From Bryobacteraceae bacterium (GTDB lineage: Bacteria; Acidobacteriota; Terriglobia; Bryobacterales; Bryobacteraceae), in NCBI GenBank assembly GCA_050789245.1, contig JBOZRR010000029.1:5556-69555 (forward strand): a stretch of DNA of 64,000 nucleotides, read 5' to 3'. The first letter of the stretch is position 1. Every line of letters starts with the position of its first letter. Shown one piece after another: positions 9,495 to 47,409 of the stretch. The translations under genes were made by a program, and so were the position numbers. The notes under the pieces were generated by a model, which saw only the letters and a list, made by a program, of their open reading frames with translations, did not search any database and was not told where the DNA came from.

Positions 9495-10334
9495 ATGCCC
9501 GCGATGAGCCTGTTCTGGCTCCGGCTGGCCGCGCTGCTTTTGAGCGTCGGGCTGCTGGACGCGATCCTCACCCTCCTCAAGAAGCAGACCCGACTGTACA
9601 AGCCGGCGTTGCTCTGCTTTCAGGCGGCTGTGATCTTCCAGTTCGTCGCCATCGTCGAGCATTCCGTCGCCATGCGCCATCTGGCGGCCAACAACTTCTT
9701 CGAGACGGTGACGCTGTGCGCGTTCCTGTTTGCCGTCGTGTTCCTATTCATCCACTGGCGGTATCAGTTCGAAGGCCTCAGCATCTTTGTCTTCCCGCTG
9801 GTCTTTCTGATGACCCTGATCGGCTCGATGGGCACGCCGGTCTCCGGTTGGGCCGACGCGCGGGTCCGCGACGCCTGGCTGTTGGCGCACATCCTGTTGG
9901 TCCTGCTTGGTTACGCAGGGCTACTGATCAGCGCCGGGGCTGCCGTCTTCTACCTGCTGGCCGAGCGCCGGTTGAAACGCAAAACGCGAACCGACGGCAC
10001 GCTCTGGGCCATGTTCCCGTCGGACCGCCTGCCGCCGCTCGAAACGCTCGACTCGCTCATCACGCGCTCGATGAGCATCGGCTTCGTCGCCATCACTCTC
10101 GCCGTCGTGGCGGGCTCCACCTGGGCATTCATCGAATCGGGAACGAAGTGGATCAGCGAGGCCAAAATCGCCGTCTCCCTCATCACCTGGGGTTTCTACC
10201 TGCTGATGGTCTTCCTGCGCATCTCGGCCGGATGGCGCGGAAGGAAGGCGGCCGTGCTTGCTCTGACCGTGGTTGGGTTCGCGGCACTCACCTGGGCCGC
10301 GCACGTCGGGCTGAGGCCCCTGCTGCAGAAATGA
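9495..10334 (+). CDS. cytochrome c assembly protein family membrane protein (CcsA/HemX-like)
   Basis: About 8 hydrophobic helices. It sits directly upstream of hemA, as in many hem operons. The family call comes from general resemblance only. Confidence 0.55.
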   Translation: MPAMSLFWLRLAALLLSVGLLDAILTLLKKQTRLYKPALLCFQAAVIFQFVAIVEHSVAMRHLAANNFFETVTLCAFLFAVVFLFIHWRYQFEGLSIFVFPLVFLMTLIGSMGTPVSGWADARVRDAWLLAHILLVLLGYAGLLISAGAAVFYLLAERRLKRKTRTDGTLWAMFPSDRLPPLETLDSLITRSMSIGFVAITLAVVAGSTWAFIESGTKWISEAKIAVSLITWGFYLLMVFLRISAGWRGRKAAVLALTVVGFAALTWAAHVGLRPLLQK

Positions 10335-10347
10335 GCCGCGCGTCGCG

Positions 10348-11622
10348 ATGAAGGTTTTGTTGACAGGATTGAGCCACCACACCGCGCCGGTCGACGTGCG
10401 CGAACGCGTGGCATTCCCCGAGTCCGCGCTGGGCGAGGCATTGGACGATCTTCGCGCGCGAAACGGCGTTCGCGAGGCCATGATCCTCTCCACCTGCAAC
10501 CGCGTGGAGGTGGCGGTGACGGCCGAGGACAGCGCCTCGCCCGACGAGGTGGTCCGCTTCCTGGCGGCGCGTTACAGCCTCGATCCCGCTTGGCTTCAGA
10601 CGTATCTCTACCGCTACGAGGACCAGGAGGCCATCCGGCACCTGTTCCGCGTCGCGGCATCACTCGACTCGATGGTTGTCGGCGAGCCGCAGATCCTCGG
10701 ACAGCTCAAGCAGGCGTACGTCACGGCGCGGGAGCGTGGCACCGTGAACGGCTTTCTCGACGCCATCGTGACGCGGGCGTTCAGCGTCGCCAAGCGCGTC
10801 CGGTCGGAGACGGGCATCGCGCGCAACGCGGTGTCGGTTAGCTCGGCTGCGGTCGATCTGGCCCGGCAGATCTTCGGGTCGCTCAACGACAAACGCGTCC
10901 TGCTGATCGGCGCGGGCAAGATGAGCGAACTGGCCGCGCGCCACCTGCATGCCGCCGGCTGCGGATCGATCCTGGTGACCAACCGCACACACCAGCGCGC
11001 CGCCGAGATGGCCGAACTCGTCGACGGCCATGTCATCGAATACGACGGCTACCACTCGCGCCTTCATGAGATGGACATCGTGCTGACGTCCAGCGGCGCG
11101 CCCGACTATCTGTTGAAGAAGGACGAGATGCGAAAGGTGCTCGAGAAGCGCCGCAACCGTCCGATGTTCCTGATCGACATCGCCGTGCCGCGCAACATCG
11201 CGCCGGAAGTCAACGAGATCGAGAACATCTACCTCTACGACATCGACGACCTCGGCAATGCCGTCGAACAGAACCGCCGCGCGCGCCAGGAAGAGGCGGT
11301 TCACGCCGAGCAGATCATCACGTACGAAATCGACCGGCTGATGGAGCGACTGAAAGTGCGCGAGGTCGCGCCTACCATCGTCGGCATCCAGCAGCAGCTC
11401 GACGAGATCAGCCGCGCGGAGCTCGACCGTGTCCGCGGCAAGCTCGGCGAGCTCACGCCGCAACAGGAAGAAGCATTGCAGACCTACACGCGCGGTTTGC
11501 TCAACAAGATCGCGCACGGGCCGATGGTGGAACTGCGCCGCGCGGCGGCCCGGCCCGAAGGCGACCGCGTCATCCGCCTGGTGCGCCGCATGTTCCGGCT
11601 GGAGGAGCAGGGCGAAGAATGA
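10348..11622 (+). CDS. hemA: glutamyl-tRNA reductase
   Basis: LSTCNRVE active-site Cys block, GAGKMSEL NADPH site, full-length 424 aa. The stop overlaps the hemC start (ATGA). Confidence 0.95.
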   Translation: MKVLLTGLSHHTAPVDVRERVAFPESALGEALDDLRARNGVREAMILSTCNRVEVAVTAEDSASPDEVVRFLAARYSLDPAWLQTYLYRYEDQEAIRHLFRVAASLDSMVVGEPQILGQLKQAYVTARERGTVNGFLDAIVTRAFSVAKRVRSETGIARNAVSVSSAAVDLARQIFGSLNDKRVLLIGAGKMSELAARHLHAAGCGSILVTNRTHQRAAEMAELVDGHVIEYDGYHSRLHEMDIVLTSSGAPDYLLKKDEMRKVLEKRRNRPMFLIDIAVPRNIAPEVNEIENIYLYDIDDLGNAVEQNRRARQEEAVHAEQIITYEIDRLMERLKVREVAPTIVGIQQQLDEISRAELDRVRGKLGELTPQQEEALQTYTRGLLNKIAHGPMVELRRAAARPEGDRVIRLVRRMFRLEEQGEE

Positions 11623-37855: not shown

Positions 37856-38647
37856 TTATGTGCGCTTGTGGGGGGACTTGCGCTGGAGCCACATGCGGAG
37901 GGCGAGCGGAAGACGGGTCCAGAGGGCGACGAATAGGCTGTACTTCCAGCCGGGGATGACGAAGAGCTTGCCGGAATCGAGGGCGCGGAGGGATTCGCCG
38001 ACGACAAACGCGGCGGGCATCCAGAGCGGGCTGGGGATTTTGCCGCGGTCGACGCCGAGCACGTCGTGGAACTCGGTGTAGGTGAAGCCGGGGCAGAGGG
38101 CCTGAACGACGACGGGGGAGCGCATGGCGTCGAGTTCGACGCGGAGGCCTTCGGTGAAGTCGTTCATCCAGCCCTTGGTGGCGCAGTAGGAGACGTTGCC
38201 CTGGCTGCGGGCGAAGGCGGCGACGGAGCTGACGTTGATGACGGCTCCGGAGCGGCGCTCGATCATGCCGGGGAGGACGGCGCGGGTGAGGCGCATGGTG
38301 GCGAGGACATGCACCTGGACCATGTCCTGCTGGCGGGCGTAGTCGGCTTCGTAGAAGCGGCCGAGGGTGCCGAAGCCGGCGTTGTTGACGAGGAGATCGA
38401 CGGAGGGAAGGGAGGCGAGGTGATGGGCGAGAGACTCGGTGGCGGCGGGGTCGGCGAGATCGGCCGGGAAGAGGGTGACGGTGATGGGATGAGCGGATTC
38501 GAGCTGCTGTTTCAGGTGCTGAAGGCGGTCAGCGCGGCGTGCGGTGAGCAGGAGATTCCAGCCTAGGGCGGCGAGCTGCCGGGCGAAGGTTTCGCCGAGG
38601 CCGGAGGAGGCGCCGGAAATCACGGCAAGACGGTTTTGTTGCGGCAA
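37856..38647 (-). CDS. SDR-family oxidoreductase
   Basis: VISGASSGLG, NNAG, and YCATK catalytic Tyr-Lys. Confidence 0.85.
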   Translation of the reverse strand: MPQQNRLAVISGASSGLGETFARQLAALGWNLLLTARRADRLQHLKQQLESAHPITVTLFPADLADPAATESLAHHLASLPSVDLLVNNAGFGTLGRFYEADYARQQDMVQVHVLATMRLTRAVLPGMIERRSGAVINVSSVAAFARSQGNVSYCATKGWMNDFTEGLRVELDAMRSPVVVQALCPGFTYTEFHDVLGVDRGKIPSPLWMPAAFVVGESLRALDSGKLFVIPGWKYSLFVALWTRLPLALRMWLQRKSPHKRT

Positions 38648-38668
38648 AGCTGGTGTGTCTCCCCCTGC

Positions 38669-38674
38669 TATAAT
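38669..38674 (+). promoter_or_regulatory. -10-like TATAAT hexamer upstream of the CorA-like gene
   Basis: GCTATAATCGCACC then GTG. The hexamer ends 7 nt before the candidate GTG start at 38682. No convincing -35 was seen. Confidence 0.25.
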
Positions 38675-38681
38675 CGCACCC

Positions 38682-40388
38682 GTGGAAGCCCAAGCACTGC
38701 ACCTGCATAGCTACTTCCTGTTCCCGTTTTCGGTGGACAAGGAACTGGTGATGCAGGACCACCAGAAGGTTTGGGACGAGTCGTCGCATTGGATCGACGG
38801 GCTGGACGAGTGGATCGCGGATCACGGGCACGCGGCGGGGTCGCCGGTGGCGGGGAAGCTGGGGCGGTGGCAACGCGATTCCTACAAGCGTTTCGACATG
38901 GACTCGTTCGCTTACCAGGACATGGTGTTCTTCCACAGCTTCGTGCGGCGGGTGTTCTTCGACACGGGCGAGGCGTTCAGCTCGACGTACGCCGGCGAGT
39001 CTCTGGTGCGCTGCTACATCATCCCTCTGACGGCGTTGCAGGAGACGGGACGGAAGCTGATGCTGGAGGCCGAGGATGCGCGGGGGCGTACGGCGGCGGT
39101 CCACATCACGGATCTGCGGCTGTTTCTGTTCGCGAACGGGATCGGGATTCTGACGATCGGGGTGGATGCGTTCCACCTGCCGGTGTCCCAGGCTCTGTGG
39201 ATCAACGAGATGATGCGCAAGGTGTACCCGTCGAGCGGGCGCCAGTTGCGCGAAGGGCGGACGCCCAATCTGGTGCGGCTGAAGCTGGAGGGCGGCGGGG
39301 AGCCGCAGGTGCTGGTGGAGGAGCAGTTCCAGAGCTGTGTGATGCGCAGCTTCGCGCCGCCGCTATCGAAAGTGATTACCGAGCTTCTGTACTTCGCGAA
39401 CTACGCGAAGCAGGAGTTCGAGCCGGTGCTGGACGAGCGGATGATCGTCTACACGTATCTGAGCGTGGATCCGGCTTCGGTGGACGCGGACTACGACCAG
39501 TCAGAAGAGTACGAAATCCTGATGTCGCGCCTGCTGTATGTGGACCGCTTCGGCGAGGGGTACCGCTATGAGAGCGACTTCACGCGCGACCAGATGCGGC
39601 AGCACGTCTACCGGCGATGGGCGCACCAGGGCACGCTGTACGGGTTCACGTCGTATTCGAACGTGACGCTGACGATGGGGCGGTTCGACTGCGACGAACA
39701 CCAGTTGAGGGAAGGCTTCCTGGTGCACCGCATGTTCATGTCGCGGTACTACCTGACGGTAATGGTCGCGCTGTTCTATCGCGCGACGCTGCTGGACTTT
39801 TCCGAGAGGACGGCGCTGGTGTCGCGGCTGTTGTACAAGAAGTACGGCACAGTGGACATCGAGGAACGGGACATCCGGCTGGTGGGCAACATCATGGCGG
39901 AGTTCCAGCACTTCTCGAACTATTGGTATTTCTCGGAGCTGGCGAACAAGGACGAGGAGATCGAGCACTTCCAGATGCAGTGCACGGCGTACCGCCTGGA
40001 TCCGATGAAGCGCGAGATCGAGCAGGAGATCGAGAAGCTGTCGAACTACCTGGACCGGGTGTTCCAGTTGAGGAACACGGAATCGATCAACCGGTTGGCG
40101 ATGCTCTCGATGATCCTGGGCGCTGGCGCGATGGTGACCGGGTTCTTCGGGATGAACTTCGGGCGGACGTTCGAGGAGATGTTCTTCAACCCGAAGAACG
40201 TGATCTGGCCGCACTCGACGGCGATCTTCGCGGTGACGACGATCGTGGTGGGGTCGATGCTGTTCGCGGTGTTCCTGGTGATGTCGAACTGGACCGACTA
40301 CCGGTCGATTTTGCTGCCAGAGAAGAGAAGGCCGCAGACGGAGAGCCTGAGGCGGACGCTGGAGAAGGTGGAGCAGGAGGAGGAGTAG
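38682..40388 (+). CDS. CorA-superfamily protein: unassigned ~480-aa N-terminal region + C-terminal 2-TM GMN pore
   Basis: C-terminus LAMLSMILGAGAMVTGFFGMNFG, then a second TM IFAVTTIVVGSMLFAVFLV. The N-terminal region has no motif I recognise. The start is ambiguous: GTG 38682 (coding-like codons follow) or ATG 38751. The track start at 38544 overlaps the SDR gene. Confidence 0.7.
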   Translation: MEAQALHLHSYFLFPFSVDKELVMQDHQKVWDESSHWIDGLDEWIADHGHAAGSPVAGKLGRWQRDSYKRFDMDSFAYQDMVFFHSFVRRVFFDTGEAFSSTYAGESLVRCYIIPLTALQETGRKLMLEAEDARGRTAAVHITDLRLFLFANGIGILTIGVDAFHLPVSQALWINEMMRKVYPSSGRQLREGRTPNLVRLKLEGGGEPQVLVEEQFQSCVMRSFAPPLSKVITELLYFANYAKQEFEPVLDERMIVYTYLSVDPASVDADYDQSEEYEILMSRLLYVDRFGEGYRYESDFTRDQMRQHVYRRWAHQGTLYGFTSYSNVTLTMGRFDCDEHQLREGFLVHRMFMSRYYLTVMVALFYRATLLDFSERTALVSRLLYKKYGTVDIEERDIRLVGNIMAEFQHFSNYWYFSELANKDEEIEHFQMQCTAYRLDPMKREIEQEIEKLSNYLDRVFQLRNTESINRLAMLSMILGAGAMVTGFFGMNFGRTFEEMFFNPKNVIWPHSTAIFAVTTIVVGSMLFAVFLVMSNWTDYRSILLPEKRRPQTESLRRTLEKVEQEEE

Positions 40389-40392
40389 GGGG

Positions 40393-40587
40393 TTAGTCTT
40401 CCTCGAGCGGGACCTTTCTAACGACTCTTTGCAGGCGGCGGGCATTCGGGTCGTCGGGGTCCAGGCTCTGCTCGACGAGGGTATAGAGGATTTCCAGGCG
40501 CTGCTCAGGAGTCAGCGAGCGGTAATACTCGATGTCGGCTTCTTCGGCCTCCTGGTGGGAGCGGTACTTTCGGACAACCTTCTCCAC
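40393..40587 (-). CDS. small 64-aa protein, copy 1 (putative antitoxin-like partner; nucleotidyltransferase partner lost)
   Basis: GTG start. VEKVVRKYRSHQEAEEADIEYYRSLTPEQRLEILYTLVEQSLDP. The first 44 codons are nearly identical in DNA to copy 2. Confidence 0.55.
   Translation of the reverse strand: MEKVVRKYRSHQEAEEADIEYYRSLTPEQRLEILYTLVEQSLDPDDPNARRLQRVVRKVPLEED
40456..40587. repeat. 132-bp direct repeat, copy 1
   Basis: Matches 41818..41949 with 2 mismatches by manual alignment. It begins exactly at the GTG start codon of the small ORF. Confidence 0.85.
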
Positions 40588-40632: not shown

Positions 40633-41247
40633 TCAAAGTTGAGGGTTGCCGGATTGCCCAATCGTCCAAAACAACGCGCCCTCGCCACGATATGCTTCGA
40701 CGACCAAGCCCGTAATCCCAGCGACCAAGCTCCTGGGTGGAGGGTTGTGGAGTTTGTCCTCAAGCCAGCGCAGCGGATCTTCAGATTGCGTCTCCAGGAG
40801 CGCGCCGACCAGGAACGGACTCTCGGCGAGCACCAGCGCATCGTTGATTTCGTCCGGCCTTTCGCTGCCGCCGTGAAGCACCACTAGCTTGTCGTAGTAG
40901 TCGTCCGCGCAGCCAACGATCTGCATCGCATGAACGTGGACGCCGCATTTGGCCAGACGGGTGTGCGTGGCATTCAATCCGAAGATCGCAATGTTTCCGA
41001 TCTCCCGGTGGATGTGACGGAGGATAAAACTCTCCTCTTCACGAAAGGCGGTCAGGTCTTCGAACCCGCCAAGGACTGCCGCGGTCAAATCGGATGCGTC
41101 GGATGGAGGGCACTCAGCAGGTAAGAAGGTGAAAGTGTGCCCTTGCTCCAGCGGCAGAGATCCGATGGATTCCCAGAAGGCCCCTCCCAGACTGAGCGTT
41201 TTCCGGATGTAGCCGGAATCGACGTTTCCAAACCAGTGCAGCGGCAT
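40633..41247 (-). CDS. hypothetical protein (204 aa)
   Basis: Coding-like ORF between the two repeat copies. No signal peptide and no recognised motif. Confidence 0.5.
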   Translation of the reverse strand: MPLHWFGNVDSGYIRKTLSLGGAFWESIGSLPLEQGHTFTFLPAECPPSDASDLTAAVLGGFEDLTAFREEESFILRHIHREIGNIAIFGLNATHTRLAKCGVHVHAMQIVGCADDYYDKLVVLHGGSERPDEINDALVLAESPFLVGALLETQSEDPLRWLEDKLHNPPPRSLVAGITGLVVEAYRGEGALFWTIGQSGNPQL

Positions 41248-41360: not shown

Positions 41361-41813
41361 CTAGTCCCCGATGCGCCGGAGGCGCTCCACGTCGGCCAAG
41401 TCTTGGGTACGCCCGGTGGCGAGCTTGTTTCGGATGAGGGTTTCCCGCCCAAGGAAGTGGATCGTCAGCCCGTCAGTCGGACCAGTTGCCTTGTTTTCCC
41501 ACGCCTCGTCGAAGGCGACGCCGGAGATGGACGTGAGAAGGTCGATGCGAAAGGGTGCGACACCGAGTTGGATGATCCGGCCGGCCTGAGTGAAGTCCTC
41601 CGCTGTGAGGCCGAGCGAACCAAATCCGAACTCCACGAGCGCCTTTACGGCGCGAGTGCCATTTGCAAGAGTCGGGCGGATGAGCAGATCGAGATCGCCG
41701 GTGAAACGCGGATGCCCGTGGTGGGCGAGAGCGTGGGCGCCGACGACGATGAAGTCAACTTCGTGAGAGAGGAAGCTTCTTAACAACTCTCTGAAGTCTG
41801 TGGGAAGCGGCAT
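41361..41813 (-). CDS. small nucleotidyltransferase-fold protein (DUF6036-like)
   Basis: DFRELLRSFLSHEVDFIVVGAHALAHHGHPRFTGDLDLLI...IQLGVAPFRIDLLTSISGV matches a pattern recalled from a widespread small NTase-like family. The family name is unverified. Confidence 0.6.
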   Translation of the reverse strand: MPLPTDFRELLRSFLSHEVDFIVVGAHALAHHGHPRFTGDLDLLIRPTLANGTRAVKALVEFGFGSLGLTAEDFTQAGRIIQLGVAPFRIDLLTSISGVAFDEAWENKATGPTDGLTIHFLGRETLIRNKLATGRTQDLADVERLRRIGD

Positions 41814-41949
41814 CTTTGGGGTCCAGGCTCTGCTCGACGAGGGTGTAGAGGATTTCCAGGCGCTGCTCAGGAGTCAGTGAGCGGTAATACTCGATGTCGG
41901 CTTCTTCGGCCTCCTGGTGGGAGCGGTACTTTCGGACAACCTTCTCCAC
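41755..41949 (-). CDS. small 64-aa protein, copy 2 (upstream partner of the nucleotidyltransferase-fold gene)
   Basis: GTG at 41949. Same N-terminal 44 residues as copy 1. The 3' end overlaps the NTase-like gene by 59 nt. It lies inside the spurious 266-aa track ORF. Confidence 0.55.
   Translation of the reverse strand: MEKVVRKYRSHQEAEEADIEYYRSLTPEQRLEILYTLVEQSLDPKDAASHRLQRVVKKLPLSRS
41818..41949. repeat. 132-bp direct repeat, copy 2
   Basis: See 40456..40587. The two copies are spaced 1362 bp apart. Confidence 0.85.
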
Positions 41950-41953
41950 GAAA

Positions 41954-42391
41954 TCATTGTACGACCGAGGCTTCGATGCTCGTGAAGGGCGGTGCAAGGC
42001 GCCCGGTGATGGTGCAGGGGCCGGGGGCGGTGGGGTGCTTGCCGGTGAGGCGGAAGGCACCGGTGGGGATGCGGAAGGACCAGACGCCGTCGCGGGACGC
42101 GCAGTCGCCGGAGGCTTTGATTTCGGCGCTTTCGACGGTGGTGCCATCTTGGGCGATGACGTCGATGAGGCGCGAGAGGCGGATGCGGTTGTCGGGCAGA
42201 AGGACGATGGCGACGCGGCGGTTTTCGGCGTCCAGGAAGGCCTCTTCGACACCGCGAATGCGCTTGATTCGGGGTTCGAGGGAGGCGAGGCAGGAAGCGC
42301 AGTCAGAGGGCTGGAAGCGAAGGACGACTTCGCGCATCTGGGCGGAAAGCGGCGCGGTGAGGAGGAAAGCCAGGACGAAAGCTCGGGGCAT
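41954..42391 (-). CDS. exported HMA-like (ferredoxin-fold, CxxC) domain protein
   Basis: Signal MPRAFVLAFLLTAPLSAQ. VVLRFQPSDCASCLASLEPRIKRIRGVEEAFLD...VAIVL resembles the heavy-metal-associated beta-alpha-beta-beta-alpha-beta layout. Confidence 0.6.
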   Translation of the reverse strand: MPRAFVLAFLLTAPLSAQMREVVLRFQPSDCASCLASLEPRIKRIRGVEEAFLDAENRRVAIVLLPDNRIRLSRLIDVIAQDGTTVESAEIKASGDCASRDGVWSFRIPTGAFRLTGKHPTAPGPCTITGRLAPPFTSIEASVVQ

Positions 42392-42475: not shown

Positions 42476-43243
42476 CTACGGCGTTGTTCCGGCCAAGGGG
42501 ATGTGTTGGGATCGGAAGTGAGCCAAGATTCGGTCACGGCGGGCGAGAATGGCATCGATCTGCAGGCCGACGAGAAGCCGGCCGAGCTCGGATTTGAGTT
42601 GCTTCTTGTCCAGGGCCTGGAGGGCGGCGAGGAACTGAGGGTCGCAGTTCTGGAGAAGCTCCGGGCGGCGGATTTCGGTATGCCAGCGGAAGGCTCGGGA
42701 GTGGTCGATGAGCCAGAGCTTCCAGTCCTTGTCGATGAGCATATTGTCGAGGTGGCGGTCGGGGTTGCCGATCAGCTCATCGAAGACGCGCATCCGGTCC
42801 ATCTGGGCCTGCCAGGCGGCTTCGTCGGGAGCGGGGATGCTGTCGAACCACTTCTTCGAGGCGGGGAACTGAACGTCGTCGACCCACCACGTGAGCGCGG
42901 AGGAGACGCCGTTGACACGGCGGTCGATAGAGACGGGGACGGAGTCCAGGCCGAGCATGCGGCTGAGGCGGTAGGCGGCGATGTTGCCCTTGTAGGAGTC
43001 CACTCTGTTTCGCTGAACGCGCTCAGCGTTGAGCGGCATGGCGAGGCCGCGGTGGATGGACTGGACGTGGGCGTCGTGGGCGAGGCCGCCGAGCGCGAGT
43101 GAAGCCCGGAGAGAGCCGGTGATGCCTTTGCCGGCGGGACGGGTTCCGATGATCTCCGCGTGATGGAGAAACCGCTCCTGCTCCGCGTCTGGAGGCGCGG
43201 CCAGGAGCGGTGCAAGCGCAAGAACGAGCGCCAGACCGCGCAT
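42476..43243 (-). CDS. exported PI3/PI4-kinase/HipA-like paralogue 1
   Basis: Signal MRGLALVLALAPLLAAP. Core FDELIGNPDRHLDNMLIDKDWKLWLIDHSRAF. The start overlaps the stop of paralogue 2 (TGATG). Confidence 0.75.
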   Translation of the reverse strand: MRGLALVLALAPLLAAPPDAEQERFLHHAEIIGTRPAGKGITGSLRASLALGGLAHDAHVQSIHRGLAMPLNAERVQRNRVDSYKGNIAAYRLSRMLGLDSVPVSIDRRVNGVSSALTWWVDDVQFPASKKWFDSIPAPDEAAWQAQMDRMRVFDELIGNPDRHLDNMLIDKDWKLWLIDHSRAFRWHTEIRRPELLQNCDPQFLAALQALDKKQLKSELGRLLVGLQIDAILARRDRILAHFRSQHIPLAGTTP

Positions 43244-44061
43244 CAGTTAGAGAGACTGGAGGAGGCGACGACCCGAGGCTCGCCGCCGTAGAGCACTTCG
43301 GTTTCACCGCGTTCGGAAACGAGTTGCTCGAAGTGGCGGACGATCTTGTCGCGGCGGGCCATGATGGCATCGATCTGGTAGCTGGCCAGGATGCCCTTCA
43401 TCTCGCGGCCGACCTGCTTCTTGTCGAGAGCCTTGAGGGCCGCGAGCAGACGGCGGTCACAGAACTGCATCCGGGCCGGGTTCTGGAGATCCACGCTCCA
43501 GGTGAAGGCGCGGGTATGGTCGATGAGACGAAGCTGCCAGTCCTTGGTGATGAGCATGTTGCCGGTATTGCGGTCGGGGTTGCCGATGAGCTCGTCGAAG
43601 ACGCGCATGCGGTCGGACTGCTGGCGCCAGGCAAGGGCGTCTGGGGCGAGTGCGCCGGTTTCGAGCCGCTTGGTGCCAGTCATCAGAACGTCGTCAACCC
43701 ACCACGTGACCGCGGCGCGGGTGCCGCGGACGCGGCGCTCGACGGAGACGGGCACCATGCCGAGGCCGAGGAGCCGGTCCAGCTTGTAGGCGGCGATATT
43801 GCCCTGGTATGAGTCGATGAAATTGCGGTTCAGCCACTCCACGAGGCTGCCGCCGGTGTGGACGCGGTGGATGGTCTGGACGTGGGCGTCGTGGGTGAGG
43901 GCGCCGTCGGACAGCGTGATGCGTTTCGACTCCGTGATGCCGCCCGGGGCGGGTTTGGTGGCCGTGATCTCGGCGCCGGCAAGGAAACGTTCCTGGACTT
44001 CGACTGGTGGAGCGGCCAGGGCCAGGAGAGACAGCATCATGGGCGACAGGCTGAAAAGCAT
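43243..44061 (-). CDS. exported PI3/PI4-kinase/HipA-like paralogue 2
   Basis: Signal-like N-terminus. Core FDELIGNPDRNTGNMLITKDWQLRLIDHTRAF. GAGGTG RBS. Confidence 0.75.
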   Translation of the reverse strand: MLFSLSPMMLSLLALAAPPVEVQERFLAGAEITATKPAPGGITESKRITLSDGALTHDAHVQTIHRVHTGGSLVEWLNRNFIDSYQGNIAAYKLDRLLGLGMVPVSVERRVRGTRAAVTWWVDDVLMTGTKRLETGALAPDALAWRQQSDRMRVFDELIGNPDRNTGNMLITKDWQLRLIDHTRAFTWSVDLQNPARMQFCDRRLLAALKALDKKQVGREMKGILASYQIDAIMARRDKIVRHFEQLVSERGETEVLYGGEPRVVASSSLSN

Positions 44062-44136
44062 TCACTGCACCTCAGGAGAGAATGCGTAAATGCCCCCCAG
44101 CCAGGTTCAAAAAATCCCTCCGGACAGACAAGTTTG

Positions 44137-44943
44137 TTACTTGGGTTGCGGTTCGGTGTAGAGGACCGCCGCGTCCCCCTTCTCGGCACAGAGCTTCTGG
44201 AAGTGAGCGACGAGCTTATCGCGCCGGGCGAGCATCGAGTTGATCTGGATGTCTCGCAGCCAGCGGCCGAGCTGGGCCTTCAATTGCTCGCGGGTGAGAG
44301 TCCGCATGGCCTCGAAGAGACGGCGATCACAGCGGGAGAGCCCAGCGGGGTTCTGGAGATCGGGAGAGTAGTCGAAGGCCCGGGTGTGGTCGATGAGGAC
44401 GATGGTCCAATCGTCGAGGATGAGGATATTGCCCCGGTTGCGGTCAGTGTTGCCGATGAGCTCGTCGAAGACTTTCATGCGGGCCGAGGCGCGGGCCCAG
44501 GCGGCCTGGTCCGGCGGAGGGATCTTCTTCTGAATGCGCTCGAGCTCGCGCAACTGGACGTTATCGACCCACCAGGTAACGGCGGCGACGTTGCCGTTGA
44601 TCCTACGCTCGACGGTGACGGGGACCATGTTGAGGCCGAGCATTCGGTCCAGCTTGTAGGCGGCGGCATTGCCCTTCCAGGAATCGATGAAGTTGATCTT
44701 GGGGCCGGTGGCGAGGTCCTTCTTGATGTTGAACTCGTCGATGGCCTGAACGTGGGCGTCGTGGTCGATGGCGCCGTCGCTGAGAGTGACGCGCTGAGAG
44801 TTGGTGATGCCTCCGGGGGCGGAGCGCGTCCTCACGGCCCGAGCGGCGAGCAGGAACTGCTCCTGCTCGGCGTCCTGGGTGGGTAGCGAGGAGGCCGTGG
44901 CGACGAGCGCCACGGACAGCAAGAGACACTTCAGGCTTTTCAT
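44137..44943 (-). CDS. exported PI3/PI4-kinase/HipA-like paralogue 3
   Basis: Signal MKSLKCLLLSVALVATASS. Core FDELIGNTDRNRGNILILDDWTIVLIDHTRAF. AAGGGAGG RBS. Confidence 0.75.
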   Translation of the reverse strand: MKSLKCLLLSVALVATASSLPTQDAEQEQFLLAARAVRTRSAPGGITNSQRVTLSDGAIDHDAHVQAIDEFNIKKDLATGPKINFIDSWKGNAAAYKLDRMLGLNMVPVTVERRINGNVAAVTWWVDNVQLRELERIQKKIPPPDQAAWARASARMKVFDELIGNTDRNRGNILILDDWTIVLIDHTRAFDYSPDLQNPAGLSRCDRRLFEAMRTLTREQLKAQLGRWLRDIQINSMLARRDKLVAHFQKLCAEKGDAAVLYTEPQPK

Positions 44944-44966
44944 GGCGGAGCCTCCCTTGGTTCGAG

Positions 44967-45818
44967 CTACTTGGCGGCGGTGACAGCGAGCGCCGGCTCG
45001 TCGTATAGGACGGCGGCTGCGCCTTTTTCAGAGATCAGCTTCTCAATGTGGGCGACGAGCTTATCGCGCCGGGCGAGGATGGACTCAAGCTGGATGCCGT
45101 TCAGCAGTGGATAAAGCTCCGCGCGAAGCTTGGCGGCGTCGAGGCGCTTGATGCCTTCAAGCAACGAGCGGTCGCAGCGAGTGAGCTTGACGGGATTGAT
45201 GAGGTTCGGGGTGTAATCGAAGGCGCGGGTGTGATCGATGAGGGCGACGGTCCAGTCGTCGAGGATCAGGATATTGCCCTGATTGCGGTCCGTGTTGCCG
45301 ATGAGCTCATCGAAGACACGCATACGGTCCATTTGACGGTTCCAGCGGGCGACGTCGGGCGGGTTCGCGTGCTTCTTGATGCGCTGATCTTCGGTCATCG
45401 CGACTTGGTCCACCCACCAGGTGACGGCGGTGGTCTTACCGCCGAGACGGCGCTGGACGGTGACTGGCGCCATATTGAGGCCGATCATCCGGTCGAGCTT
45501 GTAGGCGGCCACGTTGCCTTTCCAGGAATCGATGAAGTTCAACTTCGTTTGCGCGCCGATCTGACGGGTGCGGGCGTATTCGTCGATGTTCTGGAGATGG
45601 GCGTCGTGGGAGGTGGCGCCGTCAGACATCGTCACCCGAGAGGAGTTGGTAATCCCGCCGGGCGAACCCTTGACTCGGGTGATCTCTGCGGTGAGCAGGA
45701 ATTGGGCCTGTTGCTGGTCGTTCGAAACGTGGAACGGCTGGCTGAAGACCGAACCGGCCGCGAGGATGGCCGTGAACCCCAGCCGTTGAGCGAATCGAAT
45801 CCAATGTTGAATTCTCAT
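44967..45818 (-). CDS. exported PI3/PI4-kinase/HipA-like paralogue 4
   Basis: GAGGAGG RBS 6 nt before ATG 45818 (MRIQHWIRFAQRLGFTAILAAGSVFSQ). Core FDELIGNTDRNQGNILILDDWTVALIDHTRAF. Confidence 0.75.
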   Translation of the reverse strand: MRIQHWIRFAQRLGFTAILAAGSVFSQPFHVSNDQQQAQFLLTAEITRVKGSPGGITNSSRVTMSDGATSHDAHLQNIDEYARTRQIGAQTKLNFIDSWKGNVAAYKLDRMIGLNMAPVTVQRRLGGKTTAVTWWVDQVAMTEDQRIKKHANPPDVARWNRQMDRMRVFDELIGNTDRNQGNILILDDWTVALIDHTRAFDYTPNLINPVKLTRCDRSLLEGIKRLDAAKLRAELYPLLNGIQLESILARRDKLVAHIEKLISEKGAAAVLYDEPALAVTAAK

Positions 45819-45935
45819 CGTCGCCTCCTCTGCAACCATAGGCGAGAATAGGATCGGTTCAGGGGTTAAAGATTTGTGGATATCTTTAGATTGGAGAAGA
45901 AAATACGATTGGCGGCAGCACCCGAGGAAGAAGGG

Positions 45936-46285
45936 TGGTGGAGGCGGCGGGAGTCGAACCCGCGTCCGAAATGGCTCGCCGTGACAAGACTACGTGCGTG
46001 TCCGATTCAGAGTCTCGGCAGTGCCCTTAGAACCGGCAAGAAGGAACACGGCCCAGCCTGGTTGATCTCGGGTCTCAGCCTCAGGCGGTGGCCTGCACCC
46101 TATCCCGCAAAATGACGCTCAACAGGCAACGCGCGGGCTCATTGCCGTGAGCGGCTACCTATGAACTAGGCAGCGTATGCAAACTGCTGATTGGCAGTTG
46201 TAGGTTTTCCGATCGTTTTACGGGAGCTCGGAACCCGGCACGCCTCATCACTTCGATTCCATCCCGTCGAAGCCGTTACGCCCCC
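45936..46285 (-). ncRNA. ssrA: tmRNA (SsrA)
   Basis: 5' GGGGGCGUAACGGCUUCGACGGG and 3' GGGUUCGACUCCCGCCGCCUCCACCA form the tRNA-like domain. An internal tag frame ...GCC AAU CAG CAG UUU GCA UAC GCU GCC UAG lies at 46166..46195. Confidence 0.92.
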
Positions 46286-46330: not shown

Positions 46331-46963
46331 CTACCAGAAACGGGCCTCGGTGAGCTCGGCCCGGAAGAATTCGCCCTGTTCGAATTGGGGTGTCCCGAAA
46401 TGCCAGCCGGCGCGGATCTTGACCGGGATGCGGATGCCCTCGACCTCTTCGGTCTCTTCGATGAGAGCGCCGAAGGTGCAGTCTTCCCAGTTGCCATCGG
46501 GGTTGCCCCAGCGGGTCATCCACGCTTCCTTGAGGTTGCCGTCTTCATAGCGGAGGTCGACACGCTCGTCGTTCATCTCGTAATAGAAGCGGCCTGGAGA
46601 TTCCTGTTTCTGGTTCTTCTCGATCCAGTCCGGCACGAAGATGGTCTCCATGGCCATGCGGCCCTTGGCGGAGCGCAGCGTGTTCGGACTGGAGTCGCGG
46701 AGGAAGGGGATGACCTTGAGGATCCGCCAGTCCATGCCGCCGGAGCCGTTGACCCAGGCGTCGAATCCCTTAATGGAAAACGGACTGGAATCGACCTCGG
46801 CATGCCAGATGAAGCCCCATTCGGGCAGGAGGAGTTGATCGGCCGTGAAATCGCGCCACTTGCCCTTCAGACGAATAGAGCCGATCATCGACATCTCGAC
46901 GCCGCCCTGACTCTCCTGACGGTGACTGCGAAGTTGCCAATCCAGGACCTTCAAGCCTTGCAT
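46331..46963 (-). CDS. hypothetical protein
   Basis: Coding-like. Start moved to ATG 46963 (MQGLKVLDW) to avoid overlapping clpS. No recognised motif. Confidence 0.5.
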   Translation of the reverse strand: MQGLKVLDWQLRSHRQESQGGVEMSMIGSIRLKGKWRDFTADQLLLPEWGFIWHAEVDSSPFSIKGFDAWVNGSGGMDWRILKVIPFLRDSSPNTLRSAKGRMAMETIFVPDWIEKNQKQESPGRFYYEMNDERVDLRYEDGNLKEAWMTRWGNPDGNWEDCTFGALIEETEEVEGIRIPVKIRAGWHFGTPQFEQGEFFRAELTEARFW

Positions 46964-47067
46964 CGCAAATATAGTAGCGTGTTCAGGGCTTGGAAGTACG
47001 CGCAGATTTCGTGCGAAAGGGCGTGTGTCAAGCAGAGCGGGCATGAGAGACTGGAGAAACGTAACCC

Positions 47068-47409
47068 ATGTCCACAGCCGCGCCCACTCCATCGTTGGAG
47101 TCGAGCGAAATCGAAGAACTGACGCCGCTCTGGAATGTCGTCCTGTTGGACGATGACGAGCACACGTATGACTACGTCATCGAGATGCTGGTGCGTCTCT
47201 TCTTCAAGACCGTGGATGAAGCCTACAAGCACGCGGTGGAAGTGGACACGGTGAGTCGAACGATTGTCATGACCTGCGACCGGCCAGCCGCGGAGTTCGC
47301 GCGCGACCAGATCCACGGATACGGGCCGGACTGGCGGATGCCGAAGTGCAAAGGCTCGATGTCGTCCGTGCTGGAGCCGGCCGCGGGCGGTTCGTACTCC
47401 GGTGCTTAA
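47068..47409 (+). CDS. clpS: ATP-dependent Clp protease adaptor ClpS
   Basis: LWNVVLLDDDEHTYDYVIEMLVRLF...EAYKHAVEVDT is the conserved ClpS core. Confidence 0.9.
   Translation: MSTAAPTPSLESSEIEELTPLWNVVLLDDDEHTYDYVIEMLVRLFFKTVDEAYKHAVEVDTVSRTIVMTCDRPAAEFARDQIHGYGPDWRMPKCKGSMSSVLEPAAGGSYSGA

Follow-up and report, generated by a model that had tools for sequence, protein, structure and literature searches.

What might four adjacent genes coding for kinase-like proteins, each with an export-type leader, do outside the cytoplasm of an acidobacterium? This question is raised by a locus of a Bryobacteraceae bacterium (GenBank assembly GCA_050789245.1, contig JBOZRR010000029.1), of which 64,000 nucleotides were analyzed. 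The whole of this 64-kb stretch is hereafter called the window, and the positions reported for it follow its own numbering. The four genes, named P1 to P4, form a tandem array whose products are predicted to have a protein-kinase-like fold, with Fam20 as the nearest known family and the PI3/PI4-kinases and HipA as the next branch. They belong to a family which is large, mostly acidobacterial, and unnamed.

A tandem array of four paralogues

The genes of the array and their catalytic segments are located as follows:

44967-45818, minus strand: P4, 283 amino acids from the ATG at 45818 (longest open reading frame (ORF) 44967-45839, 290 amino acids)
45219-45314, minus strand: catalytic segment of P4, with D177, N182, and D195
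44137-44943, minus strand: P3, 268 amino acids; other sites are G45 of the G-loop and D87 and N92 of helix C
44374-44469, minus strand: catalytic segment of P3, with D167, N172, and D185
43243-44061, minus strand: P2, 272 amino acids
43504-43599, minus strand: catalytic segment of P2, with D163, N168, and D181
42476-43243, minus strand: P1, 255 amino acids, the most divergent copy, with DRH in place of DRN
42689-42784, minus strand: catalytic segment of P1, with D162, N167, and D180

According to the ORF listing and ARAGORN, the order is tmRNA gene, P4, P3, P2, P1, and an HMA-like ORF, all on the minus strand. An earlier reading of this DNA, made from its letters alone (the sequence-only reading), had described four consecutive reverse-strand paralogues of 255-283 amino acids. 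All four are present in the ORF listing, and each of the conserved blocks listed at that time was found in an end-to-end alignment of P1-P4. Pairwise identities range from 42 to 60% over the whole length, a mutual similarity far beyond chance, the closest pairs within the array being P3-P4 (60%) and P1-P2 (56%). The tight packing noticed earlier was also seen: the stop codon of P2 and the start codon of P1 overlap by one base (TGATG), and the spacers measure 23 nucleotides between P4 and P3, 75 between P3 and P2, and 84 between P1 and the HMA-like ORF.

P4 is assigned 283 residues, in agreement with the length proposed before, because a Shine-Dalgarno sequence, GAGGAGG, lies 5 nucleotides 5' of ATG 45818. 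Good Shine-Dalgarno sequences likewise precede P3 (GGGAGG) and P2 (GAGGTG). The good ribosome-binding sites claimed from the sequence are thus present for P4, P3, and P2 and missing for P1, which, like the HMA-like ORF, has no Shine-Dalgarno sequence. Translation of P1 probably relies on stop/start coupling with P2. No terminator-like site was found on the minus strand inside the four-gene block, and P1-P4 are probably transcribed as a single unit; a scan of the array region for sigma-70-like promoters found none, a result which is uninformative for this phylum.

A predicted kinase-like fold closest to Fam20

The structure of P3 was modeled with AlphaFold2 using a 55-sequence alignment, and fold matches were sought with Foldseek against the PDB. 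The P3 model (predicted local distance difference test (pLDDT) 91.6; predicted template-modeling score (pTM) 0.87) retrieved Fam20C, Fam20A, and Fam20B structures as all of its top 24 matches (E = 1e-9 to 1e-7; query-normalized template-modeling (TM) score 0.60-0.72), followed by type II PI4-kinases (PI4K-II; TM about 0.49) and then by Vps34 and PI3K. With the P1 model (pLDDT 90.1), the ranking was the same, Fam20C/A/B coming first and PI4K-II next, with HipA and Helicobacter pylori CtkA lower. The bilobal kinase fold which characterizes members of the PKL (protein-kinase-like) superfamily is seen in both AlphaFold models. At E <= 0.001, the P3 and P1 models had 223 and 169 PDB matches, respectively, and the top 50 listed are all of kinase fold, so that the kinase-like fold predicted from the sequence was recovered. 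Target-normalized TM scores against Fam20 reach just 0.4-0.5, the crystallized Fam20 chains having 380-440 residues versus about 250 in the mature proteins of the array, in which the large N-lobe insertions of Fam20 are absent.

Profile comparisons lead to the same neighborhood. The family profile matched FAM20A in the PDB at E = 1.1e-8, as well as FAM20C and FAM20B, with an alignment covering profile positions 157-272. FDxLIGNxDR(H/N), (L/I)DxxRxF, a Cys situated ahead of the C-terminal helices, and two Arg residues (RR) of the final helix are the C-lobe motifs aligned with Fam20. For P1-P4, every Pfam and NCBIfam score falls short of the cut-off of its model. All sub-threshold matches (PI3_PI4_kinase at E about 1e-4, HipA_2, Fam20C, FAM198, ABC1, and TIGR03843 at E about 1e-9) are kinase-like, and no characterized non-kinase family is among them, in line with the sequence-only reading. 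With the Fam20 model PF06702 (threshold 26.8 bits), P1, P3, and P4 score 13.9, 13.1, and 11.2 bits, respectively, no match being reported for P2; P0121, a relative with two domains in tandem, scores 29.4 bits. Similarly, P1-P4 all remain below the threshold of PF00454 (27.1 bits), with 16.5-23.8 bits over about 40-50 residues at the catalytic loop of a 241-position model, and below that of the HipA models PF07804 and HipA_2 PF20613 (27 bits), with 15.8-19.0 bits. The scores for TIGR03843 (29.6-37.8 bits) lie far from its cut-off of 172.4 bits; with about 155 residues aligned, the SCO1664 family described by this model is, judging from the alignment, a distant relative. When the 55 relatives were scanned at E <= 0.01, the commonest weak Pfam match was PI3_PI4_kinase (29), followed by HipA_2 (25), ABC1 (13), FAM198 (10), and Fam20C (3). 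A Fam20C C-terminal fragment search of the protein database returned C-terminal fragments alone and was of no help for the Lys and Glu residues of the N-lobe. The affinity to PI3/PI4-kinases and HipA put forward earlier therefore stands as that of the next-best structural and weak Pfam matches, and the place of closest family goes to Fam20.

The Fam20 family (PF06702) comprises the Golgi casein kinase Fam20C, the pseudokinase Fam20A, and the xylose kinase Fam20B. Like P1-P4, as predicted here, these proteins cross a membrane to reach a compartment which does not make ATP itself, and they too occur as sets of paralogues. Unlike Fam20, with which identity is just 12-16%, the bacterial family has no invariant Lys, its helix-C acid positions hold an Asp and an Asn, its one conserved Cys makes several conserved disulfides impossible, and a cleavable Sec leader is predicted, whereas Fam20 proteins enter the eukaryotic secretory pathway. 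FAM20 has been described as eukaryote- or Metazoa-specific (PMC9758233), two Fam20 papers searched by keyword mention no bacterial homologues (PMC5865150; PMC7948968), and a literature search found no description of bacterial Fam20-like exported kinases.

The other relatives differ in further respects. In PI4K-II, the catalytic Asp is followed at the same distances by the Asn (+5) and by the second Asp; unlike the family described here, this enzyme is a cytosolic, membrane-associated lipid kinase. HipA and CtkA (Foldseek TM 0.42-0.53) belong to the same atypical-kinase branch, but HipA and the SCO1664 proteins are cytoplasmic, HipA pairs with HipB, and a Sec leader and the phosphatase and carrier context described below are missing from all of them. 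SEAE1, a bacterial kinase-like family described in a 2026 preprint (10.64898/2026.09.18.752743), also shows weak PI3/PI4-kinase similarity, a neighboring PAP2 gene, and a nearby SmpB gene. It differs in being mainly from Bacteroidota and predicted intracellular; it also keeps a Lys (K140), and the distance from N221 to D241 is 20 residues, versus 13 here.

Conservation of the active site

Conservation was assessed on 274 sequences aligned to the family model, namely search matches, cluster representatives, and the four proteins of the window. In P3 numbering, the main positions are as follows:

D167: catalytic-loop Asp, 99%
N172: Asn at +5, 98%
D185: DFG-like Asp, 99%
R188: after D185, 98%
F190: after D185, 100%
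D87: start of helix C, 99%
N92: helix C, N in 87% and E in 9%

All these residues are present in P1-P4. The Asp/Asn/Asp (D/N/D) layout from which the kinase assignment had been made is hence conserved across homologues (99%, 98%, and 99%). Four Arg residues are also invariant (R113, R188, R240, and R241). In an ungapped hidden Markov model alignment, D87 is paired with the Asp in the "YDRHNAE" of hydra Fam20B and N92 with the Glu in "NAEIAA"; these two residues align with the two acidic positions of the helix-C motif of Fam20, in both the Fam20B and Fam20C alignments. Their counterparts in human Fam20C would be E306 and E311. No Lys is invariant, and the candidates for the role of the strand-3 Lys are position 51 in strand 2, basic (R or K) in 94% of the sequences, and position 66 in strand 3, where Q accounts for 86% and R or K for 11%; D87 provides the helix-C acid. 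We tentatively take Q66 to occupy the position of K271 in Fam20C. The one conserved Cys is C205 (71%).

The third residue of the catalytic-loop DRx motif had led to the suggestion that the array mixes catalytic variants, P1 having DRH and the other copies DRN. This idea was rejected, the family statistics giving it no meaning: Asn stands there in 93% of the family and His in 4%, His being also the residue of Fam20.

A degenerate paralogue of 261 amino acids was observed in another locus (L068, 8838-9623, minus strand), its catalytic-loop segment being replaced (FRALTGNPKGDYADAF). It lies in divergent orientation beside a canonical copy (10001-10843) and may be a pseudokinase partner like Fam20A. 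Such a pair indicates that pseudo-enzyme partners can arise in the family.

Leaders and predicted export

All four proteins carry an N-terminal hydrophobic stretch of 14-17 uncharged residues, whose best 10-residue Kyte-Doolittle mean is 1.9-2.9. Lys or Arg residues precede this stretch in P1, P3, and P4. The leader of P4 reads MRIQHWIRFAQRLGFTAILAAGSVFS/QPF and that of P3 MKSLKCLLLSVALVATASS, while P2 has a hydrophobic leader without any K/R. For the family as a whole, export was called on 231 full-length single-domain members with a hydropathy heuristic and not with a trained signal-peptide predictor, a leader being recognized as an N-terminal 10-residue window with a Kyte-Doolittle mean >= 2.0. 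Such a window is found in 89% of the members versus 1% for a control segment inside the domain. With a median of 16 residues, the uncharged run matches a signal peptide in length and not a membrane anchor, and it is preceded by K/R in 88% of the members; AxA-Q-like ends are frequent among the leaders.

Domain fusions bear on the same point. In P0162, a Hanks kinase (Pkinase) domain and a transmembrane helix (589-607) are followed by a C-terminal family domain. In one ORF (L072), the family domain comes after a signal peptide and is joined to PD40 (TolB-like) repeats. Ten long family members were scanned, of which six are made of a signal peptide, a Metallophos domain, and one or two family domains. 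The family domain is predicted to lie outside the membrane because it is fused after a transmembrane helix, to PD40 repeats, and behind signal-peptide-Metallophos modules. Sec export of the family is, as a prediction, well supported by these features, and the export signals read at the N-termini in the sequence-only reading were found again under these hydropathy rules, with the fusions in agreement.

Two family domains were also seen in tandem within single polypeptides, P0121 (671 amino acids) and P0147 (898 amino acids, after a Metallophos domain), an arrangement which fits the idea of domains working as dimers.

A large family and a local expansion

A HMMER search of 1.84 billion cluster representatives (clusters at 50% identity) retrieved 5,217 proteins at E <= 1e-3, 2,703 at 1e-10, and 1,079 at 1e-30. 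Each source name seen for these relatives was "hypothetical protein," and some matches carry the labels Candidatus Solibacter and Paludibaculum. A locus survey with a single genome for each species gave 492 stretches coding for a relative, of which the best 80 were used. These are almost all from Acidobacteriota (Bryobacterales, Terriglobia, Vicinamibacterales, and Thermoanaerobaculia), along with a few oddly labeled metagenome-assembled genomes (MAGs). Five of the loci (L005, L017, L028, L040, and L070) are labeled Acidimicrobiia, Bifidobacteriaceae, or Planctomycetota, and their family genes code for proteins 46-49% identical to P3, as acidobacterial relatives are; these labels probably reflect mis-binned or mislabeled MAG contigs and not a real spread.

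Among the 83 sequences scanned, 76 carry one copy and five carry two, four copies being found only in the window and in a duplicate contig (L001). The array is, on this comparison, a lineage-specific tandem expansion of one gene, because its four copies are each other's closest relatives. One further relative, P0004, is 67% identical to P2 and shares the downstream toxin-antitoxin and CorA-like synteny described below; its contig ends before the point where an array could show. A second gene of L002 was considered as a hidden paralogue and rejected (hhalign probability 0.1%). The possibility that the array and the HMA-like gene form a conserved feature of the family was likewise rejected, most sequences being single-copy and the HMA-like ORF not being a recurrent neighbor; the conservation of this neighborhood, which the sequence-only reading had raised, was not found.

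Adjacency to ssrA did not prove conserved either, a tmRNA gene being found beside a family gene in only one locus other than the window (L033, 9842-11147, Bryobacteraceae MAG ACI1). There, the family gene directly adjoins ssrA (tag ADNQQFAYAA), upstream of it versus downstream in the window, and its product is the closest locus-derived relative of P1 and P2 (50-55% identity).

Phosphatase, carrier, and signaling genes in related loci

Neighboring genes were counted by clustering the flanking ORFs of 81 related loci, from which four real recurrent neighbors emerged. Nineteen of these loci carry an exported Metallophos gene belonging to a single subfamily, mostly less than 300 base pairs (bp) away from the family gene or overlapping it, and a leader stands directly before the GDxHG motif in 15 of the 16 neighboring phosphatases with that motif. 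The best PDB matches of these enzymes are the Shewanella psychrophilic phosphatase I / protein-tyrosine phosphatase structures 1V73, 2Z72, and 2ZBM (E = 1e-34); ApaH is matched at E = 1e-10, and PrpE tetraphosphatase models are also weakly matched. Among PPP phosphatases, the Shelph group was founded on the Shewanella enzymes, and a specificity for Tyr is reported for the Shewanella enzyme (PMC535813). Taken with the Metallophos fusions, this adjacency is strong sequence evidence for a link between the family and an exported Shelph phosphatase.

TLC/NTT nucleotide-carrier genes are found in 14-15 loci, all above the Pfam cut-off, and most of these carriers contain HEAT repeats together with a fused or adjacent cyclic-nucleotide-binding domain (cNBD). 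The NTT-HEAT(-cNBD) proteins are a monophyletic group, widespread in free-living bacteria, whose function is not known (PMC5381601), and a literature search found no later functional work on them. Three loci have an operon-like organization:

L034, 9965-15607: family gene, small exported protein, Shelph, NTT-HEAT
L035, 5464-10552: PAP2, family gene, NTT-HEAT
L058, 9917-16775: family gene, NTT-HEAT with a cyclic-nucleotide (cNMP) domain, family gene, convergent Shelph

Altogether, a Shelph and/or an NTT gene is present in 26 of the 81 loci, which are scattered across the family tree. Within 500 bp, signaling genes were also found, coding for membrane Ser/Thr kinases in eight loci, GAF/FHA regulators in seven, and sensor histidine kinases in four.

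A proposed function and its alternatives

The fold, the conservation of the D/N/D positions, and the leaders all agree with the exported family of atypical kinase fold proposed in the sequence-only reading, export and activity being predictions. As to what such proteins do, the explanation that we consider somewhat more probable than all others together is that the family consists of extracytoplasmic phosphotransferases, likely acting on protein, with Shelph as the reverser and the NTT-HEAT carrier, where present, as the ATP supply. The exported protein would bind a nucleotide and a divalent metal and transfer a phosphate to a substrate of the periplasm or envelope. This substrate would most likely be a protein, either of the envelope or secreted, because the linked phosphatase is a homologue of protein phosphatases. 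The Shelph enzyme would then remove the modification made by the exported kinase-like protein. Where an NTT-HEAT carrier is present, it would exchange cytoplasmic ATP for periplasmic ADP, just as AXER/SLC35B1, an antiporter which like others follows gradients, feeds ATP to the endoplasmic reticulum lumen. The four paralogues of the window might differ in substrate or form hetero-oligomers like Fam20A/Fam20C. In growing Gram-negative bacteria, ATP does cross the periplasm, since a periplasmic apyrase abolishes ATP release by Escherichia coli (PMC6335424).

A wider proposal can be made, in which many Acidobacteriota would possess an extracytoplasmic phosphorylation system made of a Sec-exported Fam20-like writer, an exported Shelph eraser, and ATP delivery to the periplasm by a reversed NTT-HEAT(-cNBD) carrier, the family being the prokaryotic root of the Fam20/FAM198 kinases of the eukaryotic secretory pathway. 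It is put forward tentatively, and we hold it to be doubtful.

Several points weigh against an extracytoplasmic phosphotransferase. The mechanism would be carried over to the window from relatives only 45-50% identical, and no Shelph or NTT gene was found in the window, even at E <= 10. Across the related loci, 55 of 81 have neither partner gene, and the chance rate of Shelph/NTT neighbors is only roughly estimated, not from whole genomes. The export call depends on a hydropathy heuristic. The invariant Lys is absent and, if Q66 does stand at the strand-3 Lys position, which is tentative, canonical ATP handling would not be assured. ATP is not known to be kept up in the periplasm, from which the outer membrane would leak it. 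Finally, the substrate class would also be open to a sugar, as for Fam20B, or to a lipid, as for PI4K-II, both enzymes being among the closest structures.

This last point leads to the alternative which survives best, although we judge it unlikely, namely that these are exported kinases for a non-protein acceptor, either a sugar (of exopolysaccharide, lipopolysaccharide, or glycoprotein) or an envelope lipid, from which Metallophos and PAP2 enzymes would remove the phosphate. The hydra Fam20 with sugar (5xoo/5xom) is, with PI4K-II, one of the best structural matches, the helix-C acid is an Asp as in the aligned Fam20B, and in L035 the gene directly before the family gene codes for a PAP2 phosphatase. 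The four invariant Arg residues would also suit an anionic glycan or lipid head group. However, the recurrent partner is a homologue of protein-tyrosine phosphatases and not a sugar or lipid phosphatase, glycosyltransferase and polysaccharide-export genes are absent from the recurrent neighbors, and the Ser/Thr kinases, FHA/GAF regulators, and sensor kinases encoded nearby point to protein signaling.

Among 274 diverse members, P1-P4 included, the D/N/D positions are retained at 98-99%, which would be unexpected for a protein devoted purely to binding. It is thus quite unlikely that the family serves mainly as a module for binding or sensing outside the cytoplasm, without catalysis, that is, as a pseudokinase which would, for example, sense extracellular nucleotides or regulate the periplasmic part of membrane Ser/Thr kinases, with the copies of the array as variants of ligand specificity. 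What speaks for such a module is the sensor position held by the domain in Hanks kinases, behind their transmembrane helix (P0162, with P0172 and P0197 as probable further cases), the presence of Ser/Thr kinase genes within 500 bp in eight loci, the missing invariant Lys, and the pair of degenerate and canonical copies in L068, which recalls Fam20A/Fam20C.

Another nucleotide chemistry outside the cell, such as AMPylation or another transfer as in SelO or SidJ, or else nucleotide scavenging, with extracellular nucleotides or dinucleoside polyphosphates trimmed by the exported phosphoesterase and imported by the NTT carrier, appears very unlikely. The absence of the canonical Lys and the weak matches of the phosphatase partner to ApaH and PrpE tetraphosphatase models would suit it; moreover, characterized NTTs are importers (PMC5381601), and non-kinase activities are known in other kinase-like families (PMC10870513). 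Nevertheless, the partner matches protein phosphatases best (E = 1e-34 versus 1e-10 for ApaH), the D/N/D layout is that of phosphotransferases, and pure scavenging would leave the role of the kinase-fold protein unexplained. Least likely of all, and highly improbable, is that these are ordinary cytoplasmic kinases of the HipA or SCO1664 type whose N-termini are not functional export signals: weak HipA_2 matches, the similarity, at E about 1e-9, to TIGR03843, the model of the cytoplasmic SCO1664 family, the lack of a positive n-region in P2, and the heuristic used to call leaders speak for it, but such leaders are found in about 89% of 231 members versus 1% for the control segment, with hydrophobic runs such as cleavable signals typically have, fusions place the domain behind signal-peptide Metallophos domains, behind a transmembrane helix, and next to PD40 repeats, and no HipB-type antitoxin gene was found among the ORFs inside the array.

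Surroundings of the array in the window

Two features directly border the array:

45936-46285, minus strand: tmRNA gene (ssrA; ARAGORN), tag ANQQFAYAA, directly upstream of the array
41954-42391, minus strand: HMA/MerP-like small protein of 145 amino acids, with leader MPRAFVLAFLLTAPLSAQ and a CASC motif

The ssrA gene is a landmark, and there is no evidence of a functional tie with the array or of a genomic island. An island at ssrA was considered and rejected, with no second ssrA 3' end, no G+C anomaly, and no integrase. The 145-residue ORF scores below threshold (HMA 19.6 bits versus a cut-off of 24.8; MerP E = 2e-4). It is plausibly an exported MerP/CopZ-like protein and may be the fifth gene of the array unit.

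Downstream of the array, a 64-residue ORF, beginning MEKVVRKYRSHQEAEEADIEYYRSLTPEQRLEILYTLVEQSL, occurs in two copies (40393-40587 and 41755-41949, both on the minus strand), which hardly differ over roughly their first 45 residues. The copy at 41755-41949 extends over the start of a 150-residue gene (41361-41813) weakly similar to AbiEii/DUF6036 nucleotidyltransferases, and the copy at 40393-40587 comes after a 204-residue ORF (40633-41247) without family match. Together with their partners, the duplicated ORFs look like toxin-antitoxin-type modules, and a related contig (L083) has an NTP_transf_2/HepT pair at the equivalent position. On the plus strand, 38544-40388 codes for a protein of 614 residues with a CorA-like C-terminal membrane domain (GMNFG) and an N-terminal region of about 450 residues without family match; a syntenic CorA-like gene of 568 amino acids is found in L083. 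Immediately upstream of ssrA lies a gene for a DUF6544/DUF6920 protein (46331-47092, minus strand), followed by genes for ClpS, YceI, RDD, and LptD proteins; ordinary housekeeping genes thus flank the array.

Implications

These proteins are best filed as a new family within the kinase-like superfamily, placed in an unusual compartment. Animals are well known to carry out regulated phosphorylation outside the cytoplasm, with Fam20C and VLK. To our knowledge, such phosphorylation is essentially unknown in bacteria, whose periplasm is assumed to be without ATP. A large exported family of kinase fold with intact catalytic residues represents a specific candidate for extracytoplasmic phosphorylation, and, with specific genes indicated for kinase, phosphatase, and carrier alike, the question of periplasmic ATP becomes testable, in a phylum which dominates soils. 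The organization of L034, L035, and L058 may be the first functional clue for NTT-HEAT carriers and, if the proposal is true, this widespread orphan family would gain its first function. It is also possible that the Fam20 kinases, which are important in human biomineralization disease, are of bacterial origin. Should a periplasmic writer, its eraser, and their ATP supply indeed work together as proposed, they would constitute a new kind of bacterial system.

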